The notes beneath the pieces were generated by a model, which worked only from the letters and a program-made list of their open reading frames with translations, was not told the DNA's origin and did no database searches. Shown here in pieces: positions 1 through 18,433 of a DNA stretch of 64,000 bases. Numbering within the stretch: the stretch's first letter is position 1; each line of letters opens with the position of its first letter. Origin of the DNA: Negativicutes bacterium. GTDB lineage: Bacteria; Bacillota; Negativicutes; UBA1444. Location of the stretch: positions 64,001 to 128,000 of the forward strand of contig CAXXIN010000001.1 of assembly GCA_963665275.2 (NCBI GenBank), written 5' to 3'. Both the position numbers and the translations under genes were made by a program.

Positions 1-1
1 A

Positions 2-618: not shown

Positions 619-661
619 GTGCGAGACAGATATTGGTGAACATGCAGCAATTTTTTATAAA

Positions 662-2169: not shown

Positions 2170-2181
2170 CAGGATAACACC

Positions 2182-2370: not shown

Positions 2371-2421
2371 AGCGCGCCAATGTCCCTGCAAAGGTTGACG
2401 GCGCGCGAGGAAGGGATAATT

Positions 2422-2619: not shown

Positions 2620-2625
2620 TTTGTT

Positions 2626-3393
2626 GTGAGCGCGGCGATTCCGGGCGGCTATATTTTGCTTGCAAGAAAAATCATCGACAGCGAGATATGGAAAAAACCA
2701 CCACTGTATATGAAGATATGGATATACCTTCTAACCCAAGCTCAACACGATCAATACAGAGGATTGCAAAAAGGTCAACTTTATACAAGCATCCCCAAAA
2801 TCCAAAAAGCCTGTGCATGGAAAATTGGCTTCAGCACCGTCACGCCAACCAAAGATCAGGTTTTTCAAGTTATCGATTGGATGCGAAAAACATCTACTAC
2901 ACTAGCAACGATGGAAGCACCAATGATAGCAACGATGAAGGCAACACATGGAATGCTTGTAACCATAGATAAATACTGTGTTTATCAGAACTCGAAACTG
3001 TATGAAAGCAACGATGAACCCGCGATGAAAGCAACGATGAACTACGACAATACAAACAAGAACCACAAAAATAACCAATACTCTCTTGTCGAAGCTAACC
3101 ACATTCGACTTGCCGAACTACTGCGGGATTCAATAACCGCTTGGAAACCAAATGCAAAGGTTGATAAAGATCTTGGCAAATGGGCCAACGTCATCAGGCT
3201 ATGCATGAAGGACGGCAGAACGGAAGCTGAGATTGAAGCCGTCATAATATGGGCAACCTGTGATTCGTTTTGGCAGGTTAATATTCTTTCTGCCGATGCT
3301 CTTCGTCGAAACTTCGATAAGCTTCAGGCTAAGATGATGCAATCAAAACCAACACAATCACCAAGTCGAGATTATTCAACTATACGGATGTGA
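2626..3393 (+). CDS. Phage replication initiator with lambda-O-like C-terminal domain
   Basis: N-terminal GYILLARKIIDSEIW...IWIYLL winged-helix type region; C-terminal WANVIRL..DGRT...W...DSFWQVNILSADALRRNFDKL resembles the lambda O C-terminus; internal iterons. Confidence 0.8.
   Translation: MSAAIPGGYILLARKIIDSEIWKKPPLYMKIWIYLLTQAQHDQYRGLQKGQLYTSIPKIQKACAWKIGFSTVTPTKDQVFQVIDWMRKTSTTLATMEAPMIATMKATHGMLVTIDKYCVYQNSKLYESNDEPAMKATMNYDNTNKNHKNNQYSLVEANHIRLAELLRDSITAWKPNAKVDKDLGKWANVIRLCMKDGRTEAEIEAVIIWATCDSFWQVNILSADALRRNFDKLQAKMMQSKPTQSPSRDYSTIRM
2904..3075. repeat. Iteron array / putative replication origin inside the initiator gene
   Basis: AGCAACGATG exact at 2904, 2928, 3007 and 3030, degenerate copies between (about 12-bp period), then an A-rich tract. 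Confidence 0.75.
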
Positions 3394-3400
3394 TGCTGCT

Positions 3401-5176
3401 ATGAACCCTTACGAATTCGCCAGAGCTCACCTTGGAGAATTCAAACAACACGGTAATGAGATTGTTCCAAAGTATTGCCCGTTTTGCCAAGGTGGACCCA
3501 ATAAAGATAAAAATTCCTTCGCTTTGAATGTTGCTAAAATGACGTACAACTGTAAGCGCGGATCATGCGCCGAACAAGGTCACTTCACACAACTTTGTAA
3601 GCGATTCGGAGTTGAAGCTGACAGAGAGCCTGGATATGAAAACTATCGGCCGGTACCAAAGGTTTATAAAAAGCCGGAAACCGTTATCGAAACGCCCCGA
3701 CAGAAAGTCGAATCCTATTTAAAGCTTCGAGGATTTAGCCCGTCGACATGGGAACGGCGCCGAGTTGGAGAAGCGGCCGGCAATATTTGTTTTCCATACT
3801 ATGAAGATTCCAAAGTCGTTTTGGTGAAGTTCCGGAAGCCTGAAAAATATACCGGCCATGGGCAAAAGGCTTGGCGTGAAACTGGTGGCAAAGACATTCT
3901 ATGGGGAATGGACTTGTGTGATCCTCAAAAACCGCTGGTGATAACTGAAGGAGAATTTGACACGCTGGCTTTAGACGAAGCCGGCATTTTTAATGCCGTA
4001 TCAGTTCCATCGGGCGCAGCAAGCATGGAATGGATTGAGAACTGTTGGGACTGGCTGGAACAGTTCAGCAAAATCATCATCTGGGGGGATGCCGACGACC
4101 CAGGGCGGGAGATGGTCCGGAAGGTTGTTTTAAAACTTGGAGAATGGCGCTGCTTCCTCGTTGATTCCGGGCGCCATAAAGATGCAAACGAAGCATTGGC
4201 AAGAGAAGGCAAGGAAAAGACGGCTGCCTATGTGGCACAGGCAAAGCCGATTCCGATTCAAGGGCTCATTGATCTTGCCGATGTGACGCCGGTCGATATC
4301 TCCAACATTGCACGAGTACGATCTGGTATTCCGGGTCTTGATCAAGAGATCGGCGGATTTCTTATGGGGGAACTTTCTGTATGGACTGGCAAGAGTGGAC
4401 AGGGAAAATCAACGCTATTGGGGCAATTGCTTTTGGAGTCCATTCACCAGGATTATGGCGTTTGTGCATATAGTGGAGAACTCCGGGCGGATCGGTTTCA
4501 ATATTGGACAAACCTTCAGGCTGCCGGCCCAAATTACATCGAGCAGTATTTCGATACGGTAAAAAAACGGCCGGTTGGCTATGTTCCCAAGCCAATCAGC
4601 AGCCAGATTCGCGAATGGTATCGGGGAAAGTTCTGGCTCTACGATAACAATATCTTGTCATCAAGCCCTGAAGAAAGCGGGATCATCAAACTATTTACCT
4701 ATGCAGCGCGGCGTTATGATTGCAAGGTTTTCCTTGTGGACAATCTGATGACTTCCCGTTTTGAAGGTGGAAAATCAGACAGCGATTATTACCGGGCGCA
4801 GTCAACTTTCGTGGGGGACCTGGTTCATTTCGCAAAAGCCTACAATGCGCATGTTCATTTGGTGGCTCATCCCCGAAAGACTCAGGGAAAAGTCGATAAG
4901 GAAAGCGTTTCGGGGAGCGGCGATATTTCAAACAGAGCAGACAATGTCTTTTCCGTCGAGAGGGCAGAAATAGGTGCCCCGATCAATACGACGGTTTCAA
5001 TTCTCAAGAACCGATCTGAGGGGATTCAAAATGTCGAAATCGGATTACTGTTTGACGTCGATTGCAAGAGACTCTGGCAGCCTTCAGATGCAGCTGGAAT
5101 GACAAAACTGTATGGATGGGAGACGCAACGAAAAATAACGTGCGCAGATGATTTCGGGCAGGAAGTTAAGTTTTAA
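3401..5176 (+). CDS. Bifunctional primase-helicase (T7 gp4/Twinkle type)
   Basis: Zn finger CPFC...CKRGSC; TOPRIM ITEGEFD and GDADDPG; Walker A GKSGQGKS; LVDNL and VAHPRK SF4 helicase motifs. Confidence 0.93.
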   Translation: MNPYEFARAHLGEFKQHGNEIVPKYCPFCQGGPNKDKNSFALNVAKMTYNCKRGSCAEQGHFTQLCKRFGVEADREPGYENYRPVPKVYKKPETVIETPRQKVESYLKLRGFSPSTWERRRVGEAAGNICFPYYEDSKVVLVKFRKPEKYTGHGQKAWRETGGKDILWGMDLCDPQKPLVITEGEFDTLALDEAGIFNAVSVPSGAASMEWIENCWDWLEQFSKIIIWGDADDPGREMVRKVVLKLGEWRCFLVDSGRHKDANEALAREGKEKTAAYVAQAKPIPIQGLIDLADVTPVDISNIARVRSGIPGLDQEIGGFLMGELSVWTGKSGQGKSTLLGQLLLESIHQDYGVCAYSGELRADRFQYWTNLQAAGPNYIEQYFDTVKKRPVGYVPKPISSQIREWYRGKFWLYDNNILSSSPEESGIIKLFTYAARRYDCKVFLVDNLMTSRFEGGKSDSDYYRAQSTFVGDLVHFAKAYNAHVHLVAHPRKTQGKVDKESVSGSGDISNRADNVFSVERAEIGAPINTTVSILKNRSEGIQNVEIGLLFDVDCKRLWQPSDAAGMTKLYGWETQRKITCADDFGQEVKF

Positions 5177-5209
5177 CAATACAGAAATCAAACAGAAGGA
5201 GGGAACTTT

Positions 5210-5680: not shown

Positions 5681-5736
5681 AAATGCCAACGAGTTTTCAC
5701 GAAGTGAAGATACGAAAATTAATGGAGGTTGTAGTT

Positions 5737-6264
5737 ATGAGTGAGCAAATGACAGAAGAACAATCTGTAGCATATCTAAAAAAGAGTTTTCGCATTAGGA
5801 CAGACAACAAGGGGTTGGTGCTACTGCGTTCAATCAAGGAAATGCTTCCGAAGGCAGATGAACAGACCCAAAAGAAAATAGGCGGGATTATTATTGGGTT
5901 TGCATCGTTTCATAATCTATCGGATTCGCAGCTGTTAAAGTTCTTTGGGGTAACGCTGGAGGCAGCTAAAGGAGCAGTTGGGGAAGAGTTCTTGCGGGAA
6001 CATGGATTTTATAGGGCATTGGTAGCAAGCCCGTATTTGTCACCGACGTGTAAACTGTTCTTTAATGCGTGGTTTGCCGAGGCAAATGATAAATACCCTA
6101 TGGGGTGTTGCCTACGTCGTGTTGGGATGGATACGTTCCGTCTTGTATCGATATTGCCAAGCGGTGCGGAGATTGAATATCCGGAGGATATGACGACTGC
6201 CCAAGTACTCGAGGCGACGAACTGCCCACGAGATGAACTGCAGGCCATGCCGGTGCTGCAATGA
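5737..6264 (+). CDS. Hypothetical protein
   Basis: GGAGG RBS before ATG 5737; ATGA overlap with the next gene. Confidence 0.7.
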   Translation: MSEQMTEEQSVAYLKKSFRIRTDNKGLVLLRSIKEMLPKADEQTQKKIGGIIIGFASFHNLSDSQLLKFFGVTLEAAKGAVGEEFLREHGFYRALVASPYLSPTCKLFFNAWFAEANDKYPMGCCLRRVGMDTFRLVSILPSGAEIEYPEDMTTAQVLEATNCPRDELQAMPVLQ

Positions 6265-6590
6265 ATAGCCAGGAAAGAACGGCGGCGACAACGTTGAAGG
6301 GTGAAGATATCCGCATTGGATGGATAGATGGCCTATTTTTGGTAGTGACCAAGACAGGAAAAGAAATTAATGGACTGGATGAAGTATTCGTGCTTCGACA
6401 GTTTGATGATCCGGAAAAAGCGTTAGCGTACGGGGCAGCTGTGATGGATGGATTGAAGCTGATGAACGGAGGTGTTTTTACTCCTACCGATGACGGCGAA
6501 GTGCTGGCTTCGCCCGAAGCTATGCTAGCCATGACCGGGATGTTTTTCGAACGAAATAATAAAAGGAGGGAAAACGATGTCAGCAAGTGA
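6261..6590 (+). CDS. Hypothetical protein immediately upstream of the tape-measure gene
   Basis: Overlaps both neighbours; partial paralog of 5210..5680. Confidence 0.7.
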   Translation: MNSQERTAATTLKGEDIRIGWIDGLFLVVTKTGKEINGLDEVFVLRQFDDPEKALAYGAAVMDGLKLMNGGVFTPTDDGEVLASPEAMLAMTGMFFERNNKRRENDVSK

Positions 6591-9500
6591 TGTTCAAATA
6601 CAAATAATCGGCAAGGATTTAGCCTCTGCCGCGTTCAAGTCCGTCGATGCGTCGGCAAAACGGACTGAAGCTCAGATGGCTTCTCTTGGTTCGTCTGCCG
6701 GAAGAATGGGCGGGATGTTTAGAAGCGCCGCTTCTGTCACCGCCGGGATTGCTGGGTACGAAGGAATATCCTCAATAATGCAAAAAAGCGTTGGCGCGGC
6801 GTTCGAATTTGCAACAGGGCTCGAAGCCTCTGCCAACGGCATGGCCGGTATTCTCATGAGCATGGGCCAGGTTGACGGCAGGACGCTTGAATGGGGCGAG
6901 TCGCTATCTGTAGCGCAGGGAATCATTACCCGCATGAATGACGAGGCGCTGCGTACGGCGGCAACCTCTCAAGAACTCGTTCGCGGCGTCCAGGCGCTTC
7001 TGGCTCCCGGCCTTGCATCGGGAATGAATATCACCCAAATTGAAACACTGACCGTAACCGGTGTGAATGCGGTTAAGTTATTACAGTTGCAATCCTATCA
7101 AGTTGTCCAGGAATTGCGTGACCTTGTTGCCGGCGGAATTCAGCCGGCTTCTTCTACTTTAGCGACAGCGTTGGGGTTGAAAGATTCCGACATACAGGCA
7201 GCAAAAGCATCATCGCAAGGCCTGTTCAACTTCCTGATGGAAAGACTGAAAGGATTTGAAGTCGCGTCTGGCGAGTACGCCAAAACCTTCAAGGGCCTTA
7301 ACGAACAAATCAAAGAAGGACTGACACGCGGAGCGGCAACAGGGATGGGAGCTGGCCTTGAATTCGCCAAAGAACAGATGAAAGGCCTTGCCGAAAAAAT
7401 AGTCACGATTGACGAAACGACCAAAACGGTGCAGATAAACCCTGTACTGGTCAGCACGATCGGGGCCATGACTCAAAACACAATCGCATTTGTCGGAGAA
7501 ATGAAAAAGATTGGCGAAATTGTTTCGCCGGTTGTTGTCCCGGCGGTTGAGATGCTAGGGTCTGCAATCGGATATGCTGCACGCAATGCAAGTGACCTGA
7601 CGTTCGCTGTTGGTGGGTGGATGATAGCCAAACAGGCGCAGGTTATATATATGGACGTTGCGGCGGCTACTGCAGGGGCTGCAACGGCGCAGACCCTGCT
7701 GGGAAGAGCGGTTATTGAAACCAATGCGCAACAGACACGACAAAGAGCAATGGCGCTTGAAGCGGCGGCAGTGCAAAAGGCAGCCGTGACAGAGCAGGTT
7801 ATCGCAATAAAATCTCTTCTCGCGGCAGAAGCGCAAAGAACCTCAGGGTTAATGAAAATGACTGCTGGATATGTTGATCAAGCCTCGGTGGTAGATAAGG
7901 CAAGACTTGCACTAATTGGGGCAACACAGGCAGCCAAAAACGGAGAATACAGCCTGGCACAGAGCATTATTTCCACAAACGAAGTTTTGGCAGCACAAGG
8001 GGCCATCGCAACCGCCGTGGCGGAAAAACAAGTCGCTGGAGCCGTGGCCGCTGCGGGAGCGCAAAAATCACTGGCGGCAACTACGGCAACGGCAAGCGCA
8101 TTTAACGCAGGAGCTTCTGTAGGGATGACGGCTGCAAGCTTTGTTGGTAAAGCTGCTTGGAAGGCTGTTAACGGATGGTTCGGCGCCGCAGTGCTGGTAA
8201 GCTATTACGCCTACGATGAAATATGGAAAAACCGCGAAGAAATTAAGCGGATTATGGCCGAAAACTACAACAATAATTTGAACACCCCTCAATCTCCCGG
8301 AGAGGATTATTTGTTTGGGCCCAAGGACAAAACCCCGGTCGCTAATTATGGAGAAAATCGAAAGCCGGACAAGAAAGTTTCTCCCGGCAGCGGCGATCCG
8401 CTCCGCGATCAGCAAGGCCCATTGCAGAAAAACGATAAGCAACTTTCCGAAATCACCGGTAAATATAACAAGCAAAAAGAAGAAATCATGAAGATTGAAG
8501 CTGATCTTCAGACATCAATACTCCAATTACAAGGGTTCACACTGCAAGCAACGCTCAATGGAATTGAAAAAGAGAAAAAGGCGTGGATTGAAAAAGGCGT
8601 CAATAAAGTCGCGGCAGAGCAATGGGCCGCCGCGGCCATCACTAAAGCCAACAAAGACGCCGCCGACAAAATTAAAACAGCCTACGAGCAGGTGAAATCA
8701 TCCCGCGAAAGCGTTGCCAGCACGTTCCAGGGATCGTTTGGATCAGCCATTGACGAAGTGATGCAGAACATCAAGAACAATCGCAGCGAGAACGCCTACG
8801 AAGCGGTTGAAAAGATGCGTAAGGAATTTGAGATCAGGCAGCAAGCCTCAAGGGCCGTGGCTTCGGCGGCAGGGTTTTCTGATGCAGAAAAGTTCGATCC
8901 GGTATCTCCATGGCAGTCGGTCAATAAGTCCATTGAAGCCGCAGCAAAAGCGCAAATAGAGTATTTGAAGATCATCGCGCAGAATACGGCAAGGCCACCA
9001 CAATCCCCGGCTGGGAGTATTCAGAACCCCAAAGATCCTGGTAAGGCAAACAGTTTCCCGCCAATACAGGGAGGCGGGTCAAACCCGAATTATGATGGGG
9101 CATTTGGCGGTGGACAGCAACGTAACGGCGAGGCGATTACTCCAGGAACACTAACCTTTGAACAATATAATAAGGCGACCGGCATGGATAAGTTAATGAA
9201 CATTACGTGGCCGGCAGGGTGGACAGATGAGCGTAAAGAAAAGTGGGGGCGAAATTTAGAGGGGTTCCCAATTCCTGGTCCGTACAACGACTCATCCAAG
9301 AAACCGTTTTGGAAAGCAGATACCCAAGGTGGCATGCTGCAGTCTAACTCCGATCAAGTTGAGCGCGCAAGAATAATCATGGGAAATATGTCTGGCGATA
9401 AAGAGTCAACCAATAGAGTAAGGGCGCTGATGCAGGGGATGAAGGAATCAAGTGGCGATAAATTCGCGCCGCAAACATCCGCTATCGCACCAGTGCAACA

Positions 9501-9663
9501 AGTATCAAATAGCCTTAAATTTGATATCCAGGTCAATGCCAATGGCATGGATCAGGAGTCTGCAAGGCAACTAGGCAACGAAGCGGCAAAGCAAATGCTT
9601 CCTCGCATCGAACAGGCAATTAATCAGTCGCGGACTAGCTTTGCAGGACCAGGACTGAAATGA
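6577..9663 (+). CDS. Phage tail tape-measure-like protein (1028 aa)
   Basis: N-terminus DVQIQIIGKDLAS; long Ala/Gly-rich helical body with hydrophobic segment WFGAAVLVSYYAY; C-terminal FDIQVNANG..ARQLGNEAAKQM, typical of tape measures; AGGAGG RBS. Confidence 0.82.
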   Translation: MSASDVQIQIIGKDLASAAFKSVDASAKRTEAQMASLGSSAGRMGGMFRSAASVTAGIAGYEGISSIMQKSVGAAFEFATGLEASANGMAGILMSMGQVDGRTLEWGESLSVAQGIITRMNDEALRTAATSQELVRGVQALLAPGLASGMNITQIETLTVTGVNAVKLLQLQSYQVVQELRDLVAGGIQPASSTLATALGLKDSDIQAAKASSQGLFNFLMERLKGFEVASGEYAKTFKGLNEQIKEGLTRGAATGMGAGLEFAKEQMKGLAEKIVTIDETTKTVQINPVLVSTIGAMTQNTIAFVGEMKKIGEIVSPVVVPAVEMLGSAIGYAARNASDLTFAVGGWMIAKQAQVIYMDVAAATAGAATAQTLLGRAVIETNAQQTRQRAMALEAAAVQKAAVTEQVIAIKSLLAAEAQRTSGLMKMTAGYVDQASVVDKARLALIGATQAAKNGEYSLAQSIISTNEVLAAQGAIATAVAEKQVAGAVAAAGAQKSLAATTATASAFNAGASVGMTAASFVGKAAWKAVNGWFGAAVLVSYYAYDEIWKNREEIKRIMAENYNNNLNTPQSPGEDYLFGPKDKTPVANYGENRKPDKKVSPGSGDPLRDQQGPLQKNDKQLSEITGKYNKQKEEIMKIEADLQTSILQLQGFTLQATLNGIEKEKKAWIEKGVNKVAAEQWAAAAITKANKDAADKIKTAYEQVKSSRESVASTFQGSFGSAIDEVMQNIKNNRSENAYEAVEKMRKEFEIRQQASRAVASAAGFSDAEKFDPVSPWQSVNKSIEAAAKAQIEYLKIIAQNTARPPQSPAGSIQNPKDPGKANSFPPIQGGGSNPNYDGAFGGGQQRNGEAITPGTLTFEQYNKATGMDKLMNITWPAGWTDERKEKWGRNLEGFPIPGPYNDSSKKPFWKADTQGGMLQSNSDQVERARIIMGNMSGDKESTNRVRALMQGMKESSGDKFAPQTSAIAPVQQVSNSLKFDIQVNANGMDQESARQLGNEAAKQMLPRIEQAINQSRTSFAGPGLK

Positions 9664-9675
9664 GGCGATAGGGTA

Positions 9676-9936
9676 ATGCAGGAACATGACAAAATAATTC
9701 AGTTGACTCACATGGAATCAACCTTGCGTGAAGTTGCAAAACGCGTAATATTGACGGCTGATGTGCTAGAACGGTGCAGGACCATAAGCGATCCTGCACC
9801 GGTACTTCTGGCCTGGACTGTTGTGATTGAACGTCAGTCCAAGGAGCTGGAATGCATTGCAAGGGTAATTCGCCAAGAAGCCGACGCGGTGGAGGTGGCG
9901 CATGGACGAAAAGACGGCAGCAGTTCTGTTGCTTGA
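9676..9936 (+). CDS. Hypothetical protein
   Basis: 86-aa helical ORF in the operon. Confidence 0.5.
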   Translation: MQEHDKIIQLTHMESTLREVAKRVILTADVLERCRTISDPAPVLLAWTVVIERQSKELECIARVIRQEADAVEVAHGRKDGSSSVA

Positions 9937-10438
9937 CTATCCTAAGCGATGGGATGCCCTGCAGGAGCGCCGAGCTCAGATTATTGACGCCTATGGTAAC
10001 GGTAACGCCTATCATGGTGGCGGAGGAGACAGTGGCGGTCATAGTGATAATACTTTCAAAAAAGCCTCGCTGCTGGTTAATATGGGCACAGAAGAAGCCA
10101 ACCTTAAGGTGGTGCGCGAATGGCTTTCTATCGGATTGAACCCTCGGGATTCGAGTGGTATTGATAAATTTATGGAGAGGTTATCCATCAGTTCAGCTCG
10201 ATCGGCACAATATCGATCAGAGCGAGAGCGTAAGCCAGAGAGTGAAAGGCATGGTGAATGGGTTGACTCGCTTTGCTGGACGTGCCTGAGACGAACGTGG
10301 TCGTGCCTATGTCAGTATCCGGAAGAAACGCCGCCAGGACTTGAGACAACTGAACCCAATCCGCAATGTGCTGACCGGATTGTGGTTCGGTGTGGTTGGT
10401 ATTGGCACGATAAGGAAGCGGCACAGGTGCGGAAGTAG
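9902..10438 (+). CDS. Protein with RinA/ArpU-like N-terminus and Cys-rich C-terminus
   Basis: LLDYPKRW..LQERRAQII...GGGG..SDNTFKKA resembles the RinA N-terminal region; C-terminus has CWTC..C..C..C; GGAGGTGG RBS. Confidence 0.6.
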   Translation: MDEKTAAVLLLDYPKRWDALQERRAQIIDAYGNGNAYHGGGGDSGGHSDNTFKKASLLVNMGTEEANLKVVREWLSIGLNPRDSSGIDKFMERLSISSARSAQYRSERERKPESERHGEWVDSLCWTCLRRTWSCLCQYPEETPPGLETTEPNPQCADRIVVRCGWYWHDKEAAQVRK

Positions 10439-10471
10439 GAAGAATAATAAGAGTGTAAGGAGGAATGACAT

Positions 10472-10600
10472 ATGAGAACAATTGATGAAATCCAAAAGGA
10501 GATTGATTCCTTAGTTTTTGAACCTGGGGACCCAAAACGAATTCTACCCGCGCAAGATCAGCCTGCAACTCGAACTACTCATAGCACTGCTGCGAAGTAA
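10472..10600 (+). CDS. Small protein (42 aa), possibly frameshifted
   Basis: Strong TAAGGAGG RBS before ATG 10472; reads MRTIDEIQKEIDSLVFEPGDP... Confidence 0.45.
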   Translation: MRTIDEIQKEIDSLVFEPGDPKRILPAQDQPATRTTHSTAAK

Positions 10601-10641
10601 ATAAGAAGATCGTGAAAAATTCCATGCGAACACAGGTGAAA

Positions 10642-10698
10642 ATGGAATCTGAAGACATCGCAGCCGAGCTGAAAGAAGAAAACCTACTGATAAGGTGA
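10642..10698 (+). pseudogene. Truncated N-terminal paralog of 10950..11369
   Basis: MESEDIAAELKEENLLIR* versus MDPGDVATELKEDYLLIS. Confidence 0.55.
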
Positions 10699-10699
10699 A

Positions 10700-10732
10700 T
10701 GAGGCAGCCCTTTTATGCTAAGGGGCTGCCTC
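10700..10732 (+). terminator. Intrinsic terminator-like hairpin
   Basis: tgaggcagccc / gggctgcctca inverted repeat. Confidence 0.65.
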
Positions 10733-10949
10733 AAGTTTCGTGCCGGTAATTCTCGGCATCCATACCCAATCGATCTTCAAATCCGCAAACGCTTGCGTTT
10801 TTGAAACTTCCAAGCGCTTGGAAGTTTGGCATACATAAGGCATGGTGACCAACGTTTCTGCCGAGACCGACAATCCTTCATAACACAGTAGCGGGTTGAT
10901 ATGGTAGGCAATGCTTCAAACAGTCATGAGAAAGAACGGGAGGAAGCAA

Positions 10950-11369
10950 ATGGATCCTGGCGATGTTGCCACGGAATTGAAAGAGGACTATCTACTCATT
11001 TCAAGTTGGCTGATTTACTACAGTGAACGGAAGCGCAACATAGACATAATGCGGATTTCAACGCAAGACAAGAGGTGGATGGAGGTGTTCGAGCTATTGC
11101 ACCATATGCTTGGACCGAAGAAACGTCTATTACTCGAACTCAGGAGACTAGAGGCAGAGCAACCAGCCGCTCGCAGAACACGAGGAAGGCCCGGCTGGAT
11201 GGTATGGGTGCAACGCCATTGGGTCGAAGCCTACGCGAAGCGATACGGTGATTCTGATGGTGAATGCTGGATATCGGACGGGATGGTCAAGAACATGTGG
11301 AGCGAGATTGTGGCTCGATGCGCAATATTGGCAGGAAAGAGAGGGCTGCTGGCGGGGAGAGCCTCCTAG
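10950..11369 (+). CDS. RinA-like late/packaging transcriptional activator
   Basis: LGPKKRLLLELR...W...ISDGMVKNMWSEIVARCAILAGKRGLL resembles the RinA C-terminal HTH; lies directly upstream of the cos-like site; GGGAGG RBS. Confidence 0.6.
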   Translation: MDPGDVATELKEDYLLISSWLIYYSERKRNIDIMRISTQDKRWMEVFELLHHMLGPKKRLLLELRRLEAEQPAARRTRGRPGWMVWVQRHWVEAYAKRYGDSDGECWISDGMVKNMWSEIVARCAILAGKRGLLAGRAS

Positions 11370-11376
11370 AGGGCGC

Positions 11377-11449
11377 GGGTCCTGTGACGCCCTAAAATGC
11401 GGCAAGGGTCGCGAAGCCCCCGACAATTCGCTAGTGATAGAAAATTTTT
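11377..11449 (+). other. Lambda-like cos packaging site (cosQ-cosN-I2 architecture)
   Basis: GGGTCCT (11377) - 43 nt - TTCGCTA (11427) - 6 nt - GAAAATTTT. Lambda, as recalled, has GGGTCCT - 43 nt - TTCGCTA - 5 nt - GAAAATTTT. Confidence 0.7.
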
Positions 11450-11763
11450 GTGCGCTTCGGATTTCGCTTTTTTGGTGTGCGCTTCTGGTGGGCAAAGCCG
11501 CCGAAAATTCAGTATTTAAAGCACTTGAAGGGGGGTAGCGAAAAACAAAACCAACGGCAAAAGTCGGAAGTAAAGCGAAACTGCGAAAAAAGGGGGGGGG
11601 ATGTGTTTGGGGGTATCTTTTGCGAACTCGATAAAATACGGCGCGGTATCGGGGAAAAAAGCAATGTCAAAAATTAATCAGAAAGGGGCTAAAGATAATG
11701 AACATGCAAAGCGGCGAGGCAATGACAAAAAAAGAAAACGCTAATAATACGGAGGGTAAACCA

Positions 11764-12498
11764 ATGACCGAAAACAGTATGGAAAAGGCCCGGAAAAAGC
11801 TAAATAATGCCTATGCGATGGAATTAGAACAGGCGGCAATCGTCGCAAGTCTAAAGGGTAAAATTAAGGCCGCAGAGGGCGCGACCGTCGAAATCGGCGA
11901 TGACATTGATCTTGTGGCCATTCGGCAGAGAATATCGGAAACGCAGAAAAAACACCAAAACTTGACCGGCGAATTGGCAGCGGCTGAAATGGTGCTGGTG
12001 TCGATTCAAAAACAACGAATCAATGCTTTGATGGCGGTTTATGCGGCGGAACACGAAATCAGACAGGAAGAACGGTCACTATTGATAAAAGAGCGAGCGG
12101 GATTGCAGTCTGAGATAACCAGCCTTCGCGCAAAACTAGAAGTCATTGAAGGAAAGGGTAGACTTCTTGACCGTACATTAGACAGCATGAACCGAGCCGA
12201 GGAAACAGTTGCCGGGAAATGCGCAGCGGCAAGGCTGGCGGGGTATGAAGAATCATTACTGAGGTGTCGTGATCGACAAAAATTTCACGACATAATGGAA
12301 AGCGGCCAGGGCGGCACATACGTAACGATTGACGAGCGCGGCGAATTTATCGAACCGCAACAAACAAGCCGCGACGTTGACCAATGGGGCTATCAAAAGC
12401 CGGTGGCTACGGTTCAGTATAGCGAGCCTAGGCCTATAGAAAATAGGGTTGAAACCCCAAAACGAGAAGTATTTACGGTCGTCCCCATGCAGGCATAA
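11764..12498 (+). CDS. Coiled-coil hypothetical protein
   Basis: GGAGG RBS before ATG 11764; heptad-rich E/K/R/L/A sequence; followed by a terminator. Confidence 0.7.
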   Translation: MTENSMEKARKKLNNAYAMELEQAAIVASLKGKIKAAEGATVEIGDDIDLVAIRQRISETQKKHQNLTGELAAAEMVLVSIQKQRINALMAVYAAEHEIRQEERSLLIKERAGLQSEITSLRAKLEVIEGKGRLLDRTLDSMNRAEETVAGKCAAARLAGYEESLLRCRDRQKFHDIMESGQGGTYVTIDERGEFIEPQQTSRDVDQWGYQKPVATVQYSEPRPIENRVETPKREVFTVVPMQA

Positions 12499-12514
12499 CG
12501 CCGGAAAAGAGGAG

Positions 12515-12551
12515 AACCCCGCGCCGCAAGCTTTTCTTGCGGCGCGGGGTT
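12515..12551. terminator. Terminator hairpin between convergent genes
   Basis: aaccccgcgccgcaag / cttgcggcgcggggtt perfect stem. Confidence 0.8.
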
Positions 12552-12644
12552 TGGATAAAAAGAACCTATCAGTATTATATCATGTTAAATTGCTATGGGC
12601 TATTTAAAAAAACGGCCAATAAGGAGCGGTGGAGACAGCTCGAT

Positions 12645-13043
12645 TTATACTCTCAGTCGTTTTTTCAAGGCGGTTTGCAATATGTTGGAAAAGTTGACCC
12701 CCTCACGTTCGGCCATGGTGTTCAACCATTGAGGGATCGTCAGAGTTTTCTTCACAGCCCGGTTATCGTGCTTCTGTTTATAGGCCAGCATATCCATATC
12801 GACCAGGGCGATGAAGCTGCTGCCCTCCGAGCGTAGTCCGGAAGGATCAGAGGCAGCAGGAAATTCCTTCCCGTCTGCTTCCAGTTCGGTCAAATAAATA
12901 CCTATGGCGTCCCGTGTCATTTCAAAAGCCTCTTCCAGGGTATCACCTTCCGTAATGCAGCCGGGAAGATCAGGAACGGTTACAGAGTAGCCACCGACTG
13001 CTTCCGCTTCGAATATGGCCGGATATACAAACTTTGTTTTCAT
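12645..13043 (-). CDS. hicB: HicB family antitoxin
   Basis: YPAIFE...YSVTVPDLPGCITEGDTLEEA...VKKTLTIPQWLN...VNFS. Confidence 0.93.
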   Translation of the reverse strand: MKTKFVYPAIFEAEAVGGYSVTVPDLPGCITEGDTLEEAFEMTRDAIGIYLTELEADGKEFPAASDPSGLRSEGSSFIALVDMDMLAYKQKHDNRAVKKTLTIPQWLNTMAEREGVNFSNILQTALKKRLRV

Positions 13044-13045
13044 AA

Positions 13046-13252
13046 CTATTCCTCCTTCGGCAGCTGGACCGGCTTCAATCCGGCTTGCTTCATAATCTGG
13101 TTAAAGGTTCCCGGCTTCAGGTCTTTGTTATGGAGAGGAACAACCAGCATACCTGGCTTATCCGTGTGCTTCATGATATGGTGCGATCCATCGATTCGCG
13201 CCACCCGCCATCCATCTTTTTCAAGGATCCTGATCAGGTCTTTGGGCTTCAC
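13046..13252 (-). CDS. hicA: HicA family mRNA interferase toxin
   Basis: LEKDGW...GSHHIMKH...VVPLHNKDLKPGT...IMKQAGL. Confidence 0.93.
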   Translation of the reverse strand: MKPKDLIRILEKDGWRVARIDGSHHIMKHTDKPGMLVVPLHNKDLKPGTFNQIMKQAGLKPVQLPKEE

Positions 13253-13278
13253 GTTATCCCCTCCAAGTGATTACATTA

Positions 13279-13300
13279 TAACACGTGTTAATACGTGCGT
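13279..13300. promoter_or_regulatory. Putative HicB operator
   Basis: Perfect palindrome TAACACGTGTTA overlapping a second ACGTG repeat upstream of hicA. Confidence 0.5.
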
Positions 13301-13388
13301 AAATAATAAAACACATTAGCTTTGCATCTCCTCTATTGATGCAGGAGAGCAAAAAGAAGCCGCCATCTTTGGCGGCGGTACTACTTAT

Positions 13389-13607
13389 CTATCGCCTATT
13401 AAACAGGGAGAGCAATATATCCAAGATGGCTTGAGCGCCGAACCAAACAATGATAGCGGAAAAGACATAGCTGGCTGTTACAGAATACTTGGCAAGGCTT
13501 GCGGGAACAATCACAGGCGCGAGATAGCCCCAAATGACGATAGAGGCCAAATATAATCCGTAACCAATGACGGCAAGGAGTATCCACCTAAATAATGTGC
13601 CGAACAT
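13389..13607 (-). CDS. Small two-TM membrane protein
   Basis: AGGAGGG RBS; 72 aa with two hydrophobic helices; downstream of the Xre gene. Confidence 0.7.
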   Translation of the reverse strand: MFGTLFRWILLAVIGYGLYLASIVIWGYLAPVIVPASLAKYSVTASYVFSAIIVWFGAQAILDILLSLFNRR

Positions 13608-13662
13608 CTTATTCCCTCCTGTGTTTTCTGGGTTGAAATAATAAATACGATCGAGAAGCCTG

Positions 13663-13875
13663 TTAAACTTTCTCTTCTGGAATATACTCCATGAGGTCAC
13701 TGGGTTGACAGTTAAAATACTGGCACAAACGATGAACAACTTCCAGGGAAACATATTCACCTTTACCCATTTTAGCTATCGTTGATGGCGACAGGCTGAG
13801 CTCGATTCTTAATTTCTCTTTCGTTATCCCTTTATCAATGAGCATTTTCCATAAAGGATTGAATGAAAACGGCAT
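13663..13875 (-). CDS. Xre/Cro-C1 (HTH_26-type) repressor
   Basis: FNPLWKMLIDKGITKEKLR..LSLSPSTIAKMGKGEYVSLEV..RLC.YFNCQPSDLMEY. Confidence 0.9.
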   Translation of the reverse strand: MPFSFNPLWKMLIDKGITKEKLRIELSLSPSTIAKMGKGEYVSLEVVHRLCQYFNCQPSDLMEYIPEEKV

Positions 13876-13900
13876 AGGATACACCTCCCTTCTTCTACAT

Positions 13901-13978
13901 ATAATAGTATAAAATATTCAATATGTCAAAGAAAAACTATGCAAACACATTGACGAAACCTTTGACAAGTTGTAGAAT
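13901..13978. promoter_or_regulatory. Divergent sigma-A promoters of the second switch
   Basis: Rightward TTGACG-N17-TAGAAT (13950-13978); leftward TTGACA-N17-TATTAT (13929-13901). Confidence 0.65.
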
Positions 13979-14300
13979 AAATCTAGAAATGCGGAGATAG
14001 TTGGCGAAGATGCTTTGACCCATGTTAAATAATACCCCCCCCACAACCGCAAACATTTTGGTAAGCGAAGGATACGAATCGACACCACGCCTGCATTCTT
14101 ACAAGGGCCGCCGTCAGATCAGAACAATTTGTCAAAGTTGTAGTTGGTTTTCCAGGAACTCTCTCGGCGGTGTTATTGTAAGATTAAGGATAATTACGTA
14201 TTGAAAAGGGGTGGCTTATTGGTGACAACACAGAACAGAGCAGGGCCATAGACCGGCTTCATACGATCAAAAAGGAAATGAATGAAAGGAGAGGCCCATC

Positions 14301-14495
14301 ATGAAAAAACCAATCGTCATACCCCATTACGAAGACCAGGACATTCTCTCAGCCGTTGAGGCGGCGCAGTACATGAAGGTTTCAAAAGACACCGTTTACA
14401 CCCTCGTTGCCGAAAATAAAATTCCGCACCGCTATGTTGGTCGGCAGGTCAGGTTCCCGTTCTGGTTGCTCAAGGCCTGGATGGAAGGGGATTAG
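14301..14495 (+). CDS. Excisionase-family HTH protein
   Basis: LSAVEAAQYMKVSKDTVYTLV..NKIPHRYVGRQVRF. Confidence 0.85.
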   Translation: MKKPIVIPHYEDQDILSAVEAAQYMKVSKDTVYTLVAENKIPHRYVGRQVRFPFWLLKAWMEGD

Positions 14496-14637
14496 GTGTT
14501 CACCGATGGCGTACAAAGAAACTGTTGAATCTTCAGTGGCGCAGAGACAATAGGCCTCATTGTGAAAATCGGCGCCACCACTTTCGGTCAGAGATCCGAG
14601 CGATCAACGAGATTTGACTTGGGAAGGAGCAATAACC

Positions 14638-14808
14638 ATGGCAGTTTATAGAGGAGAAATCATCTGGGTCGAAGAGTTTGGCACGAAACCGCGAAGCGAG
14701 GTTTTCGCCAAGCTCATGAAGATACTGGAAGACGGCTATGCAAAGCAGTTGTTGGAGAAAGACGCGAAAAGGGCAGCAGAAGAAGCGGCGCGAGAATCGA
14801 TTACCTAA
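14638..14808 (+). CDS. Hypothetical protein
   Basis: AAGGAG RBS; followed by a hairpin at 14820-14847. Confidence 0.6.
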   Translation: MAVYRGEIIWVEEFGTKPRSEVFAKLMKILEDGYAKQLLEKDAKRAAEEAARESIT

Positions 14809-14937
14809 AACTAGAAAAGCCCGGCCCCTGTTTTAACAGGGGCCGGGTCAATCGATCAAAGCAGAATTGAATGAAACTGATATGTATATTTTGATTGTAA
14901 TAGAGATATCGGGTGAAAAGAAAGGGGATATATTTTT

Positions 14938-15198
14938 ATGATCGACTGGCAGGAAATTGAAGCACTGGGCACGGAAGCGGAGCAGCTCGCCACGATGGCG
15001 CAAACGGTAGAGGATGCCATAGCGTATGGGCCTTTTACCGAAAAGACTTATCACGGGGCATTGTCCCTGCTCACAGCGCTTATACACCAACATGCGCAAA
15101 AAATTAATGTGGTATTGCATGCAGAATTGAATGAACTGAAATCGAAAAAGAAAGAAAGGCCGTCAATGGTACGGGATACCGCGGCAGCCTCGCAATAA
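14938..15198 (+). CDS. Hypothetical protein
   Basis: 86 aa; AAGGGG RBS. Confidence 0.6.
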   Translation: MIDWQEIEALGTEAEQLATMAQTVEDAIAYGPFTEKTYHGALSLLTALIHQHAQKINVVLHAELNELKSKKKERPSMVRDTAAASQ

Positions 15199-15257
15199 TA
15201 AATATAGTATGGGCGGCTGCTGTCATGCGCCCCCACCATTTTGAAAGGGAGATTATT

Positions 15258-15890
15258 GTGAAACTGATTTGTACGACGGTAGAACCTATCCAATTCAAGG
15301 TTGAGTTTGACTTTGCTACGCATTACCTTCAGGGATTTATTAGGAATCTGCAGCAATTCATTGGTTCCGGCAATATAGACCGCGACGCATTGAAGCGATC
15401 GGTGTTCTATGGCGTGAAGTATGTCGCAGGCAATATAAAAGCCAACAACTCGCAACGAATGCTGGGCCTTGTCACTGGCGTGAAAGTGGCAATTGCGGAG
15501 CTTACACCTGCCGAATTGATTACCATATTCCCCATAACAAAGACATACGATGGGGATCGGACGAAAAGCAAGGATTACTTCTATTCGATAGACCGGCTGA
15601 AGAAACACGGCCTGCAGACCATCATCGGCGATGCGGTGGATGATTTGCTATGGGATATTAGGAATTTGGATCTTGAGCTTTTCACGGTTCGTTGCATGAC
15701 ATTGGTCGACGAGTTGCGCCGGATGGAAGGGAAGCCGGGAATAATTGAGGAATTCTACGGCATTCAACCAAAGTATCTGTGCAAGGATGAGCGCGGCAAA
15801 GAGTTTATGTTTGATCCTGCGACGGGCAAAACCGCAAAGGTGAAAGCGAAGATACGTTTGCACATTGTTGCAAAAAAAGGAAATCATTAA
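15258..15890 (+). CDS. Conserved hypothetical phage protein
   Basis: TPAELITIFPITKTYDG...KDYFY motif recalled from Bacillota prophage proteins; AAGGGAG RBS before GTG. Confidence 0.65.
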   Translation: MKLICTTVEPIQFKVEFDFATHYLQGFIRNLQQFIGSGNIDRDALKRSVFYGVKYVAGNIKANNSQRMLGLVTGVKVAIAELTPAELITIFPITKTYDGDRTKSKDYFYSIDRLKKHGLQTIIGDAVDDLLWDIRNLDLELFTVRCMTLVDELRRMEGKPGIIEEFYGIQPKYLCKDERGKEFMFDPATGKTAKVKAKIRLHIVAKKGNH

Positions 15891-16055
15891 ACGAATACTC
15901 TCCATCAGTGGTGAGTATTCGTACTACACGCCGAGTAATCGCTTTGCAACTTCCTGCAAAATGCTTCGCAGGATGAATTCCAAGTTGAGAAAAACACAGT
16001 GCTGGGGGAAACGAAGAGGAGAAATGGCATAGGATCAAAACAGGAGGTGAATTTG

Positions 16056-17261
16056 ATGGCAAAGCAAAAACCGAAACCCGAAGGACCAGAAACACGAAGA
16101 GGGCATGGTGAAGGAAGTTGGTTGTATCTTGATGATCTGGACAAATGGCAGTTCAGGGTATCAGCCAAAACACCGGATGGTATCACAAAACGGTTTGCAG
16201 TGACAGCATCTACTAAAGGCGAATGCAGGGAGCTTGCTAAGACCCGGACGGAGCAGATCGAAAAAGGGATCGGGTTGAACATTGATACGAAGAATATCAC
16301 AGTTACAGAGTACTTGGAACGTTGGATTGTCGACTACTCAGACCCAGATACTTCTGCATCAACCAAGAGAATATACCGGTCGGTGATTAAGAATCAACTA
16401 GCAGGGGCGATTGGCGCAATTCCCTTGAAAAAGCTGCAGCGAGCTGCATGCCAAAGACACTTCAACAATTTGGCCAAGAGTGGATTGGCTTCAGCGACAG
16501 TTTCATTGGCGCATACGGTACTGCGTGCAGCGTTGAAGCAGGCTGTAAGGGACAGGATCATTGCGGAAAACCCAGCAAGTGAACTGAAGCTGGCACAGAT
16601 TAAAAACGCGCCCAGGATGGCCTACGCATCGGAAGAGGTTTCCAAGATTCTGAAGCTGGCAGAGAATCATGAATTGCGTATCGGCTTTCATCTTCTCTTT
16701 GGGCTTGCTCTACGCGAAGGCGAGATGTTAGGCCTGAAATGGAAAAGGGTTGAACTTCCGGAAGCACAGCGCGATCAGAATGGCCAGATGGAAGGAAAAG
16801 TTCATATCGTAGAGCAGTTGAACAGAAATAAGGGCGAAACCTACGCTTCCCTAAAAACGGAGGAATCTGAACGGACCTTGCCAATATCGCCAGCGCTGGT
16901 CATTGAGCTACGAGCACAGATGCTTCGTCAAAAAGCAACGCTGTTAAAAGCCGGCATAGCCTGGAACGAAGATTTCCCTGTATTATCTGATGCGATTGGC
17001 GGACCGGTCAGGCATACGATTTTTTTGGCAGCATACAAGGAAGTTATGCAAGCTGCTGGTCTGAAAACTACCGGGACGCATGACGCCAGACACACACGAT
17101 TAACTATGTTGGCCAATAGCGGGATGGACCCCAAAACCCTGTCGAGATTCGCAGGGCATGCCGATGTCGCTTTCACACTGAATGTATATGTAACACCATC
17201 GGACGAGAAGGCTGCTGCGGCGGTCAATCAATTGGATCAAGTCATTTATAAGGCAAAATAA
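16056..17261 (+). CDS. int: Tyrosine recombinase / phage integrase
   Basis: N-terminal RRGHGEGS arm-binding region; catalytic R (LREGE), HxxR (HDARHT), H (GHAD) and Y (NVYV); AGGAGGTG RBS. Confidence 0.95.
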   Translation: MAKQKPKPEGPETRRGHGEGSWLYLDDLDKWQFRVSAKTPDGITKRFAVTASTKGECRELAKTRTEQIEKGIGLNIDTKNITVTEYLERWIVDYSDPDTSASTKRIYRSVIKNQLAGAIGAIPLKKLQRAACQRHFNNLAKSGLASATVSLAHTVLRAALKQAVRDRIIAENPASELKLAQIKNAPRMAYASEEVSKILKLAENHELRIGFHLLFGLALREGEMLGLKWKRVELPEAQRDQNGQMEGKVHIVEQLNRNKGETYASLKTEESERTLPISPALVIELRAQMLRQKATLLKAGIAWNEDFPVLSDAIGGPVRHTIFLAAYKEVMQAAGLKTTGTHDARHTRLTMLANSGMDPKTLSRFAGHADVAFTLNVYVTPSDEKAAAAVNQLDQVIYKAK

Positions 17262-17286
17262 AATCGTTTTGGTAATCGTTTTGGTA
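17262..17286 (+). repeat. Tandem 12-bp repeat; putative integrase arm-type sites at the attachment end
   Basis: AATCGTTTTGGT x2 immediately after the integrase stop codon. Confidence 0.6.
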
Positions 17287-17333
17287 GTTTGAAAACACAG
17301 GCACGCGCAAAGCCTATAATATAAAGCCTCAAT

Positions 17334-17361
17334 TGTTATGGAAATGTTAAGGTTGGGTTAA
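17334..17361. promoter_or_regulatory. Pho-box-like triad upstream of pstS
   Basis: TGTTAT / TGTTAA / GGTTAA at 17334, 17345 and 17356 (11-bp period; reverse complement of PhoP-type TTAACA). Confidence 0.65.
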
Positions 17362-17456
17362 CATCATTCCGGAAGCATTGCGACCGCGCTGGTGATTCGT
17401 TATTATGAAAACAGGGAAAATAAATTTGCGAACATATGATGGGAGGAAGAATTCAA

Positions 17457-18320
17457 ATGAACATGAAAAAAGGCTTAACGCTGGGGCTGTCCATAGTTGT
17501 GGCGGCAACATTACTGGTAGGGTGCGGCGGGGCTCCCGAAAAAAAAGCGGAAGCGCCGAAACCAGCAGCTGAAATTACCGGTACTGTTAAAGCTTCGGGC
17601 TCTACTGCCCTGCTGCCGTTGTTAAAAGCTGGCCAGGAAGAGTTTCAGAAGAAAAACGCTAAAGTTACGATCAATATCGCCGGCGGCGGATCTTTCACCG
17701 GTCAGAACCAAGTTGCCAGCGGCGCCGTTGATATTGGCAACTCCGACGTGGCACTCGACACGAAGTTGAACGACAAAGGTCTGGTTGAACATAAACTTGT
17801 GGGAATCCCGTTTGTATTTGTAGTCAACAAAGATGTCGCAGTAGATAACCTCACAACAGCGCAATACATGGGAATCATGACAGGGAAAATCACTAACTGG
17901 AAGGATGTTGGCGGACAAGATCTCAAGATCACCTTGATCCATCGTGCGCCATCATCAGGTTCACGCGCTACCATTCAAGCCTTGGTTCTCAAGGAAAACA
18001 AATTTACTGATAATGCAGTAATCCAGGATTCCAACGGCGCCGTCCGGGCCGCAATTGCCAGCACTGCCGGCGGATTCGGTTATGTCGATGCCGCTTATGC
18101 TGACGCAACAGTGAAGATGCTGGCCGTCGATGGGGTCAAATACTCTCTGGCTGACGTTGCCAGCGGCAAATACAAAATCCTCACCTTTGGCCGCATGTAC
18201 ACGAAAGGACAACCGACCGGCGCTGTCAAAGCCTTCATCGATTTCGTGACAGGCAAGGACTTCCAGGAATCCTATGCTGAGAAGAATGGTTTTGTTCCTC
18301 TCACCAAAATGCCCAAGTAA
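17457..18320 (+). CDS. pstS: Phosphate ABC transporter substrate-binding lipoprotein
   Basis: Lipobox LLVGC; GSTAL, GGGS, VDIGNSD and SSGSR motifs. Confidence 0.93.
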   Translation: MNMKKGLTLGLSIVVAATLLVGCGGAPEKKAEAPKPAAEITGTVKASGSTALLPLLKAGQEEFQKKNAKVTINIAGGGSFTGQNQVASGAVDIGNSDVALDTKLNDKGLVEHKLVGIPFVFVVNKDVAVDNLTTAQYMGIMTGKITNWKDVGGQDLKITLIHRAPSSGSRATIQALVLKENKFTDNAVIQDSNGAVRAAIASTAGGFGYVDAAYADATVKMLAVDGVKYSLADVASGKYKILTFGRMYTKGQPTGAVKAFIDFVTGKDFQESYAEKNGFVPLTKMPK

Positions 18321-18433
18321 AAGTTTCCCAACGGAGTGTTGAAGGTGTATGCCGGTAGTGCCTTAAGGCCTCCGGCGTACACTTGTTTTTAAAAGAATGC
18401 GGGATAAAAATCCCTGGAAAAGGTGTGAAGAGA

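Follow-up and report, generated by a model that had tools for sequence, protein, structure and literature searches.

A predicted lambda-type cos site in a terminase-less integrative island of a Negativicutes bacterium

Why would an integrated element that has no terminase carry a site resembling the place where lambda-like phage genomes are cut and packaged? The question is raised by a 64,000-nucleotide stretch of genome from an uncultured Negativicutes bacterium (assembly GCA_963665275.2, contig CAXXIN010000001.1, positions 64,001 to 128,000; hereafter the window, numbered from its first letter), in which a first-pass annotation made from the letters alone had noticed motifs arranged as in the lambda cos site. 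The motifs lie within an island of 19.6 kb (G000:C1:61724-81359, where G000 is this genome) that is bounded by 27-nt direct repeats. Our preferred reading, to which we give odds of roughly two in three, is that positions 11377 to ~11600 are a functional-looking lambda-type cos site of this integrative island and that the island is most likely a phage satellite. Because it has a cos site and lacks a packaging enzyme of its own, the island most likely depends for its spread on the packaging machinery of a helper phage.

The site, its family and the predicted cut

The window reads GGGTCCT at 11377-11383, then exactly 43 nt, TTCGCTA at 11427-11433, 6 nt, and GAAAATTTT at 11440-11448. For comparison, the lambda junction was taken from the NC_001416 record, whose right end closes with GGGTCCT plus 23 nt and whose left end opens with the 12-nt GGGCGGCGACCT, followed by 8 nt, TTCGCTA, 5 nt and GAAAATTTT. 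The junction that the first-pass annotation had quoted was right, since the record reads the same layout, and the motifs that it had placed in the window, among them a G9 run at 11592-11600, are all where it put them. The sole difference in layout is the spacer between TTCGCTA and GAAAATTTT, 6 nt in the window and 5 nt in lambda. The window has a single occurrence of the combined motif pattern, 100 dinucleotide-preserving shuffles have none, and the predicted 12-nt cohesive end, GGTCGCGAAGCC, is unique in the genome as an exact 12-mer. Identities to lambda, counted by eye, are 16/43 between the blocks and 6/12 in the cohesive-end 12-mer, so that the likeness consists of discrete blocks and not of overall sequence. 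A blastn search of 11250-11750 against 50,697 phage records returned ten short matches, none of which spans more than 6% of the query or has an E-value below 0.5, and none of them is to lambda. Given this low identity between blocks and a search with nothing beyond chance, the site is neither lambda nor vector DNA.

Sites of this layout form a family upstream of GpA-type terminases. Eighty IMG/VR loci with GpA relatives were gathered, and exact GGGTCCT was found within 1.5 kb upstream of the large-terminase gene (terL) on the coding strand in 20 of 82 loci; the opposite strand has it in 3. In 19 of those 20 loci the heptamer stands in the same cos context, 519-766 nt upstream of terL; overall, the layout sits ~520-770 nt 5′ of GpA terminase genes in many phages and prophages, Bacillota included. 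A MAFFT alignment of the window, lambda and the 19 loci gives a shared order of CGGGTCCTTCyGG, ~20-23 nt, GCGGGT...GCGAGCCCCG, TTnTCTAG, AAAAATTTTT and a TTCCG/TTTCG element, and GGT.CT is invariant in an alignment of 42 sequences (A4).

An nhmmer profile was built from lambda and the 19 uncultured GpA-terminase phages, with the window left out. Against the 3.97-Mb genome its sole significant match is 11372-11457 (E = 2.4e-6), the next-best matches having E-values of 4.5 and 6.6. The same profile matches 37 of the 80 IMG/VR loci (17 of these 37 being training sequences) and 13 of 30 independently drawn prophage loci from genomes of the host class, and many of these sites use a cosQ variant, TAGGTTCTTCC or AAGGTACTTCC.

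Three loci place the window's own version of the site directly before the small-terminase gene (terS), a GpA terL and a lambda-family portal gene. The IMG/VR contig L007 has, just 5′ of terS, GGGTCCT, 23 nt, GGGTCGCGAAGCCCCC, an TTTTCTAG box and an A-rich tract, and so differs from the site in the window by a single added base in the spacer. A prophage of another species of the same genus (L154, in genome G007) has the order cos, terS, GpA terL, portal and has a 17-mer, GGGTCGCGAAGCCCCCG (11406-11422), in common with the window; phages of this genus therefore include one with the same cosN core. Both L007 and L154 carry the GGGTCGCGAAGCCCCC found in the window, and their TerS proteins are 86% identical. 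The third locus, L021, is a prophage in a metagenome-assembled genome (MAG) of Bacillota; it has GGGTCGCGAAGCC and reads CGGGTCCTTCCGG...GGGGTCGCGAAGCC, 45 nt before a gene with a Nu1-like helix-turn-helix (HTH), which is followed by a GpA terL and a lambda-type portal gene. A lack of conservation upstream of terS in related phages had been proposed as grounds for abandoning the cos reading; in the GpA-type phages L021, L007 and L154 the motif set is conserved upstream of terS and terL.

The exact pattern GGGTCCT-N23-GGTCGCGAAGCC was also scanned for in viral contigs and in 596 Gb of genomes. It occurs in 0 viral contigs, because the spacer of L007 is one base longer, and in three genome contigs, L021 among them. 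The other two (L019 and L020) look like chance, as about four matches are expected by our own arithmetic and neither has a cos-profile match. A DNA search of 40 relatives gave no real match. Membership of the site in the lambda-type (Nu1/GpA terminase) cos family is supported by family conservation, by the profile match and by homologous phage genome ends, and the first-pass proposal of a lambda-type cos site is upheld to that extent.

Those genome ends also bear on where the site would be cut. Aligned to the lambda left end, the family consensus TGCG^GGTC...GAGC^CCCG corresponds in the window to CAAG^GGTCGCGAAGCC^CCCG. Three metagenomic viral contigs from IMG/VR (L057, L099 and L101) begin exactly at the base homologous to 11407, and the GenBank record of Paenibacillus phage Lily opens with GGTGCGCGTGAG at that same base, its last bases supplying a cosQ variant and the spacer. 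All four starts lie 25 nt before a conserved TAG, as in lambda (the register of the three contigs was counted by eye), and agree with the first-pass prediction of a cohesive end starting at 11407. Lily is reported to have 5′ cohesive ends with 12-bp overhangs (PMC6070908). The record of Roseburia phage Shimadzu has an 11-nt terminal repeat at the place of cosN, in a sequence with one G fewer. Two-fold symmetry around the presumed nicks, scored over 52 family members, is best for a 12-nt stagger by a narrow margin (4.79 of 10; a 14-nt stagger scores 4.5, and no other exceeds 3.6). From the homologous genome ends, the Lily overhangs and the symmetry optimum, 11407-11418 is the best prediction of the cohesive end, and the stagger in the window's element is probably 12 nt. 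That viral contigs start at a predicted left cohesive end means, beyond this locus, that contig ends could be mined for cos termini without experiments.

To the right of the predicted cut lies an I2-like segment, named for the lambda segment between cosN and cosB that is required for termination (PMC4669245). It is followed by a putative cosB-like region with TGTGCGCTTC direct repeats at 11449 and 11476, an R3-like 9-mer (TTTCGCTTT, 11462-11470) that has a perfect inverted copy at 11572-11580, and GCGAAAAA at 11538 and again at 11583. The R3-like 9-mer falls at bp 56-64 from the predicted end, and TTTCC/TTTCG elements occupy the R3-like place in members of the cos family. For lambda, R3 is placed at bp 50-65, with the TerS contacts at bp 55-63, and R2 has the opposite orientation to R3 (PMC9026076). 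The TTCGC/GCGAAA motifs that had been proposed as possible binding sites are enriched, with six occurrences of TTCGC/GCGAA in 11420-11660 against 0.74 expected, a count reached by 0.13% of 241-nt intervals in the 64 kb; they include the inverted 9-mer pair, placed like lambda R3 and R2.

The island and other islands without a terminase

The right-hand copy of the 27-nt repeat lies in the window and the left-hand copy outside it (Table 1); a search of window positions 1-19000 alone found no att-type repeat. No tRNA gene was found in the window. Upstream of pstS, six relatives have a conserved element that nearly matches the att core (3-5 substitutions). The DNA to the right of this element is conserved; the DNA to the left is unrelated in five and resembles the integrase end of the island in one. 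L202 has a related island end at the same att site. The core itself is a tandem TGTTAnGG-type element ~100 nt upstream of pstS (window 17333-17359, L198-L203). It looks like a Pho-box-type regulatory site, and integration may therefore touch pst regulation. The host's PstS is 86-88% identical to proteins of MAGs labelled Veillonellaceae or Negativicutes and 65-73% identical to those of Sporomusa.

Table 1. Features of the cos site and of the island that carries it (window coordinates unless a contig is named).
Feature	Position	Strand	Remarks
attL copy of the 27-nt direct repeat	G000:C1:61724-61750		2.25 kb before the window begins
Replication module: DnaD/O-like initiator and primase/helicase	2626..5176	+	phrog_2514 (9e-40), phrog_239 (6e-89); Pfam Toprim, DnaB_C
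109-aa ORF and 1028-aa tape-measure-like gene	6261..9663	+	source names; Atlas lead TMP_3, 0.96
P0001, conserved small gene	10911..11369	+	ends 8 nt before cosQ; true start probably Met14, at 10950
cosQ-like heptamer GGGTCCT	11377..11383	+	23 nt 5′ of the predicted top-strand nick, as in lambda
Predicted 12-nt cohesive end (cosN core), GGTCGCGAAGCC	11407..11418	+	same register as the left end of lambda
I2-like segment: TTCGCTAG box and A/T tract GAAAATTTTT	11427..11449	+	family consensus TTnTCTAG..AAA...TTTTT
cosB-like region (putative)	11449..11600	+	direct and inverted repeats, G9 run
P0002, first gene after cos, 266 aa	11698..12498	+	orphan; weak coiled-coil-type NCBIfam matches
HicB/HicA toxin-antitoxin pair (cargo)	12645..13252	-	PF15919 (9e-17), phrog_497, phrog_353
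HTH_17 (AlpA/Xis-like) gene	14301-14495	+	start of the recombination end of the island (14301..17261)
86-aa gene	14938-15198	+	common to phages L006 and L007
phrog_6329 gene	15225-15890	+	
Tyrosine integrase	15999-17261	+	
attR copy of the 27-nt direct repeat	17333..17359	+	between the integrase gene and pstS

Between these borders the island begins with a Panacea-domain gene pair, leftward genes of unassigned function, and the genes for a DnaD/O-like initiator and a primase/helicase. Three small open reading frames (ORFs), the 1028-aa gene, P0001, the cos site, P0002 and HicAB make up its middle, and the HTH_17 gene, the 86-aa gene, the phrog_6329 gene and the tyrosine integrase its end. Inside the initiator gene, at 2914-3042, are iterons of 18-26 nt and ATGAAAGCAACGATGAA type (repeat families D1 and D4). 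In lambda the replication origin lies inside an initiator gene, the O gene. The SocA/Panacea-domain gene and its 139-aa partner lie near attL (L103 1253-2330, equal to G000:C1:62253-63330) and are cargo.

Terminase, portal, capsid and lysis families were looked for in 34 ORFs against Pfam, and in 20 of these also against PHROGs, and none was found; several ORFs are without annotation. Of 401 genomes of the class, 82 have a GpA match above the cut-off; the whole genome studied here (20 contigs, 92.6% complete) has none. The first-pass remark that no terminase follows the site is thus borne out both among the ORFs tested and genome-wide.

The same island DNA is present in contigs of three further runs, continuous with the host flanks. 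Relative to the assembly, the contigs of these runs each lack one letter at window positions 10150 and 10515. Removing the two letters creates no longer ORF, and the single-letter differences make ORF calls between 9900 and 10900 uncertain.

The genes beside the site link it to phages that have a terminase. P0001 has nine homologues in 5.8 billion clusters, with 49 invariant columns, and is matched in 28 of 401 genomes of the class. Its homologues in the IMG/VR contigs L006 and L007 lie upstream of cos, terS and terL; ~0.8 kb past them are genes for a 170-aa TerS-like protein, a 631-aa GpA-type large terminase and a lambda-family portal. Three genes of the island recur in the phages that have its cosN type. 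In identity, P0001 reaches 41-43% (L006/L007), and the 86-aa protein reaches 80-81% for L006/L007 and 50% for G007; the third is the tape-measure-like gene described below. Scans of genome contigs with P0001 protein patterns gave two weak partial matches in other phyla. Exact cosQ was sought in the 1.5-kb flanks of 19 P0001 homologues from class genomes and was found at the window's own locus only. The first-pass annotation had called the upstream gene RinA-like, a label that we could not confirm. P0001 has no Pfam, PHROG or NCBIfam match, and the neighbouring ORF at 9902-10438 scores below the cut-off against the RinA family model TIGR01636 (E = 0.14, 12.4 bits against a cut-off of 31.9). A Foldseek search of its AlphaFold model (pLDDT 69.9) against the PDB returned nothing at E ≤ 0.001. 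VIA-align did relate the model to sigma region 4 domains and to the Q antiterminator, at a middling Z of 5-6.8 that lies below the level of trust advised for the tool; it is plausible, on this structural likeness, that P0001 is a sigma-region-4-like late-gene regulator.

P0002, on the far side of the site, starts 291 nt after the predicted end. Pfam and PHROGs gave it no match, and a search of 5.8 billion clusters yielded no homologue. A complex prediction of P0002 with the TerS of the same-genus prophage scored 0.01, which speaks neither for nor against binding.

The most unexpected gene of the island is the tape-measure-like one. The 1028-aa protein has 567 relatives, some of them named 'phage tail tape measure protein' or 'tail tape measure protein' and some with an SLT domain. 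Its N-terminal 405 aa are 57% identical to the tape measure of the same-genus GpA prophage in G007, the closest relative. This gene and the 109-aa ORF before it form a pair that sits in an island with no other recognisable virion gene.

To ask where else the site stands without a terminase gene, a sequence-only model (R1) of 42 sequences, the window among them, was compared with 151 genomes of the class. R1 matches 35 of the 151, and eight of these 35 have no GpA match: G000, G010, G014, G033, G041, G092, G112 and G114. Among the seven besides G000 we inspected G010, G014, G092 and G114; the R1 matches of G033, G041 and G112 are weak. In G014 (L188, G014:C5, 7310-15849) a gene of DUF927 primase-like type is followed by small ORFs, cos, a 96-aa ORF and an integrase gene, and then by host genes. 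In G092 (L189, G092:C1, 9671-17248) the order is integrase, Fic, HTH repressor, Rep protein, a 156-aa ORF and cos, followed by the host's MatE gene. G010, which belongs to the same genus as the window's host (L187, G010:C53, 5229-12836), has Phg_2220_C and DnaC-like genes, then cos and three ORFs, and after these a gene for a 1093-aa protein homologous to the 1028-aa one; there the 109-aa ORF and the tape-measure-like gene recur as a pair (9258-12836). These three islands are candidates for a wider set of cos satellites. Starting ~80 nt after the G010 cos is a 115-aa ORF (L187 7561-7908) with, by eye, a Nu1-type helix-turn-helix-like stretch; it is a possible candidate for a retargeting protein of the Rpp kind. 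Both R1 matches of G114 are at contig ends and uninformative. The two contigs (L190 8694-8795 and L191 1-99) end in the same cos site and the start of a terS-like gene, in a genome with no GpA match, and may reflect an assembly break at a repeated phage end.

Satellite, prophage remnant or regulatory region

Several properties by which satellites of the phage-inducible chromosomal island (PICI) kind are recognised are present: an integrase with att repeats at a specific site, an own replication module and an AlpA-type regulator. Among known systems a close parallel is with the enteric cos-type PICIs, EcCICFT073 and its relatives, which use the lambda or phi80 terminase and, like the window's element, are integrative and have neither terS nor terL. 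Their cosQ and cosN are like those of a GpA-type helper and their cosB is unlike it (PMC6092414, PMC9026076), the same pattern that the window shows against L154. In EcCICFT073 an rpp gene after cos retargets TerS (PMC6092414, PMC9026076). Enteric PICIs have this winged-HTH Rpp gene ~100 bp after cosN, whereas the window has no recognisable Rpp-like gene and the first gene after its cos, at +291, is an orphan. The enteric islands also differ in living in enterobacterial hosts and not in Negativicutes (Bacillota), and the window's cosN is identical to that of lambda at only half of its positions; the window's island is larger and has a tape-measure-like gene.

With the cos sites of lambda itself, N15, 21, phi80 and Gifsy-1, the window shares the 7-bp cosQ and its distance of 23 nt to the predicted nick, and a cosN that is G-rich and symmetric in part. 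Also in common are a box with TA that lies 25 nt inside the left end, an A/T tract, and, near bp 55-64, an R3-like site. It does not keep half of the lambda 12-mer or the CG flanks of the nicks, and the Nu1 and A genes are absent after its cos. Lily, Shimadzu and Faecalibacterium phage Lagaffe are cultured Bacillota phages with a GpA TerL, to which the L154 TerL is 39-43% identical. Their cos sites are as in the window's family, with a GGT-type cosQ variant, GCG^GGTG...GAG^CCC, a TAG box, an A/T tract and TTTCG repeats. They differ in being complete phages with terS and terL right after cos, of which the window's element has neither. The cos-type pathogenicity islands of Staphylococcus (SaPIs) exemplified by SaPIbov5 are, as the window's island would be, satellites in Bacillota, and they carry a helper's cos instead of a terS gene (PMC6092414, PMC5052747). 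They encode a capsid-size factor, Ccm (PMC8569155), of which no counterpart was found in the window's island. The helpers of SaPIbov5-type islands are also different, being HNH-dependent cos phages with a different type of terminase and a different cos sequence.

On the satellite reading, a helper phage of the L007/G007 type would induce the island, which would excise and replicate from its own origin into concatemers. The helper's GpA-type terminase would nick cosN, probably 12 nt apart and starting at 11407. Packaging would proceed to the right, first past P0002, the integrase end and the att junction and then past the replication genes and the tape-measure-like gene, and would terminate at the next cosQ-cosN. 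This scheme presumes both the identity of the helper and the recruitment of its TerS to the island's cosB, which is unlike the one in the candidate helper. It also presumes a way for a 19.6-kb unit to fill a head of ~45 kb; two units would make 39 kb, and multimer packaging has been proposed for EcCICFT073 (PMC6092414).

A number of observations weigh against a working satellite. The genome, at the completeness given above, has no helper prophage. The contigs of the three further runs show the island integrated only, with no joints or piled-up ends along its whole length. At the site itself, the flank of cosQ reads GTGA where the family has TTCyGG, and the bases flanking the nicks are AG and CC in the window, against CG and CG in the family consensus and in lambda; the nick-flanking CG pair is called highly conserved by Feiss et al. 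(PMC4669245). The window's cosB region is unlike that of L154 or L007, and the post-cos gene P0002 has no recognisable DNA-binding domain or relatives. Finally, PICIs are expected to have no structural or lysis genes of their own, and this island carries a tape-measure-like gene.

The last point is the main argument for the strongest rival, since the SatelliteFinder survey uses tail components to separate phages from satellites (PMC10085698). On this rival reading the site is a fossil cos, with no present function, in a decayed and rearranged GpA-type prophage from which terS, terL, all head genes and the greater part of the tail genes have recently disappeared. In its favour are the tape-measure-like gene with its upstream partner, a phage tail component, the occurrence of P0001 and the 86-aa gene in phages, the absence of a helper from the genome, and the off-consensus bases at the nicks and beside cosQ. 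In the G010 island, moreover, the order of cos, three small ORFs and tape-measure gene could arise by one deletion. In the window, by contrast, the tape-measure gene lies upstream of P0001 and cos, an order that no single deletion of a phage late region yields. The island's replication genes, integrase and att repeats are intact, as are the five cos blocks. The combination of cos, replication genes, an Xis-like gene and the tape-measure pair, without a terminase, has been kept by two related islands from different species, and the smaller G014 and G092 islands pair cos with only an integrase and a replication gene. That terminase-less islands joining this cos type to integration and replication genes recur favours function over decay, and we consider decay a serious but unlikely account, with something over a quarter of the weight.

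Much less probable is a regulatory region of the downstream operon, its motifs being operators for a sigma-like or other regulator that merely resemble cos. In its favour, the stretch falls between genes, follows a possible transcription factor and contains many direct and inverted repeats. Against it, no sigma-70-type promoter was found in 11200-11800, the order and spacing of the blocks are those of sites where the genomes of related phages have their physical ends, and a profile of terminase-adjacent sites finds only this place in the genome. A late promoter could overlap cosB, so the cos and regulatory readings are not mutually exclusive. Chance resemblance, or contamination of the assembly with lambda or cosmid vector DNA, comes to mind because the site was spotted by its likeness to lambda and because cosmid cos fragments do contaminate assemblies, and it is effectively refuted by the blastn search, the low identity to lambda between blocks, the profile match, the shuffles and the further-run contigs that are continuous with host flanks.

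What a cos satellite in Negativicutes would mean

Taken as a satellite, the island is most likely of the cos-PICI kind, in a new host class and with unusual cargo. Cos-type satellites are known experimentally from E. coli, with lambda-type helpers, and from staphylococci; with the window's element, cos piracy of the lambda type would reach the diderm Bacillota (Negativicutes) as well. In the literature searched, 'Negativicutes' and 'phage-inducible chromosomal' co-occurred only in a paper on a Wolbachia phage, and a broader search had nothing similar among the matches listed; for cosQ with Firmicutes, the titles among the matches listed pointed to other subjects.

The tape-measure-like gene stands out as odd and may be a new kind of satellite cargo. 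A bolder idea, which we hold to be doubtful, is that a family of Negativicutes satellites takes heads and the lambda-type packaging enzyme from GpA helpers through a copied cosQ-cosN and brings its own tape-measure protein and partner to remodel or re-target the helper's tail, not its capsid. If so, the changes to the tail could concern its length, the entry of DNA or escape from tail-directed defence, and this would be a mode of hijacking not described for any satellite. GpA phages of phyla far apart would then also have the grammar of cosQ, cosN, TAG, A/T tract and R3 in common, and metagenomes could be searched with it for cos satellites.

More broadly, conservation of the lambda cos grammar reaches far outside the enteric phages from which it was first described. 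Sequence alone therefore suffices to predict cos sites, the ends of genomes and cos islands that lack a terminase, and a simple cos profile has already picked out three further candidate islands.

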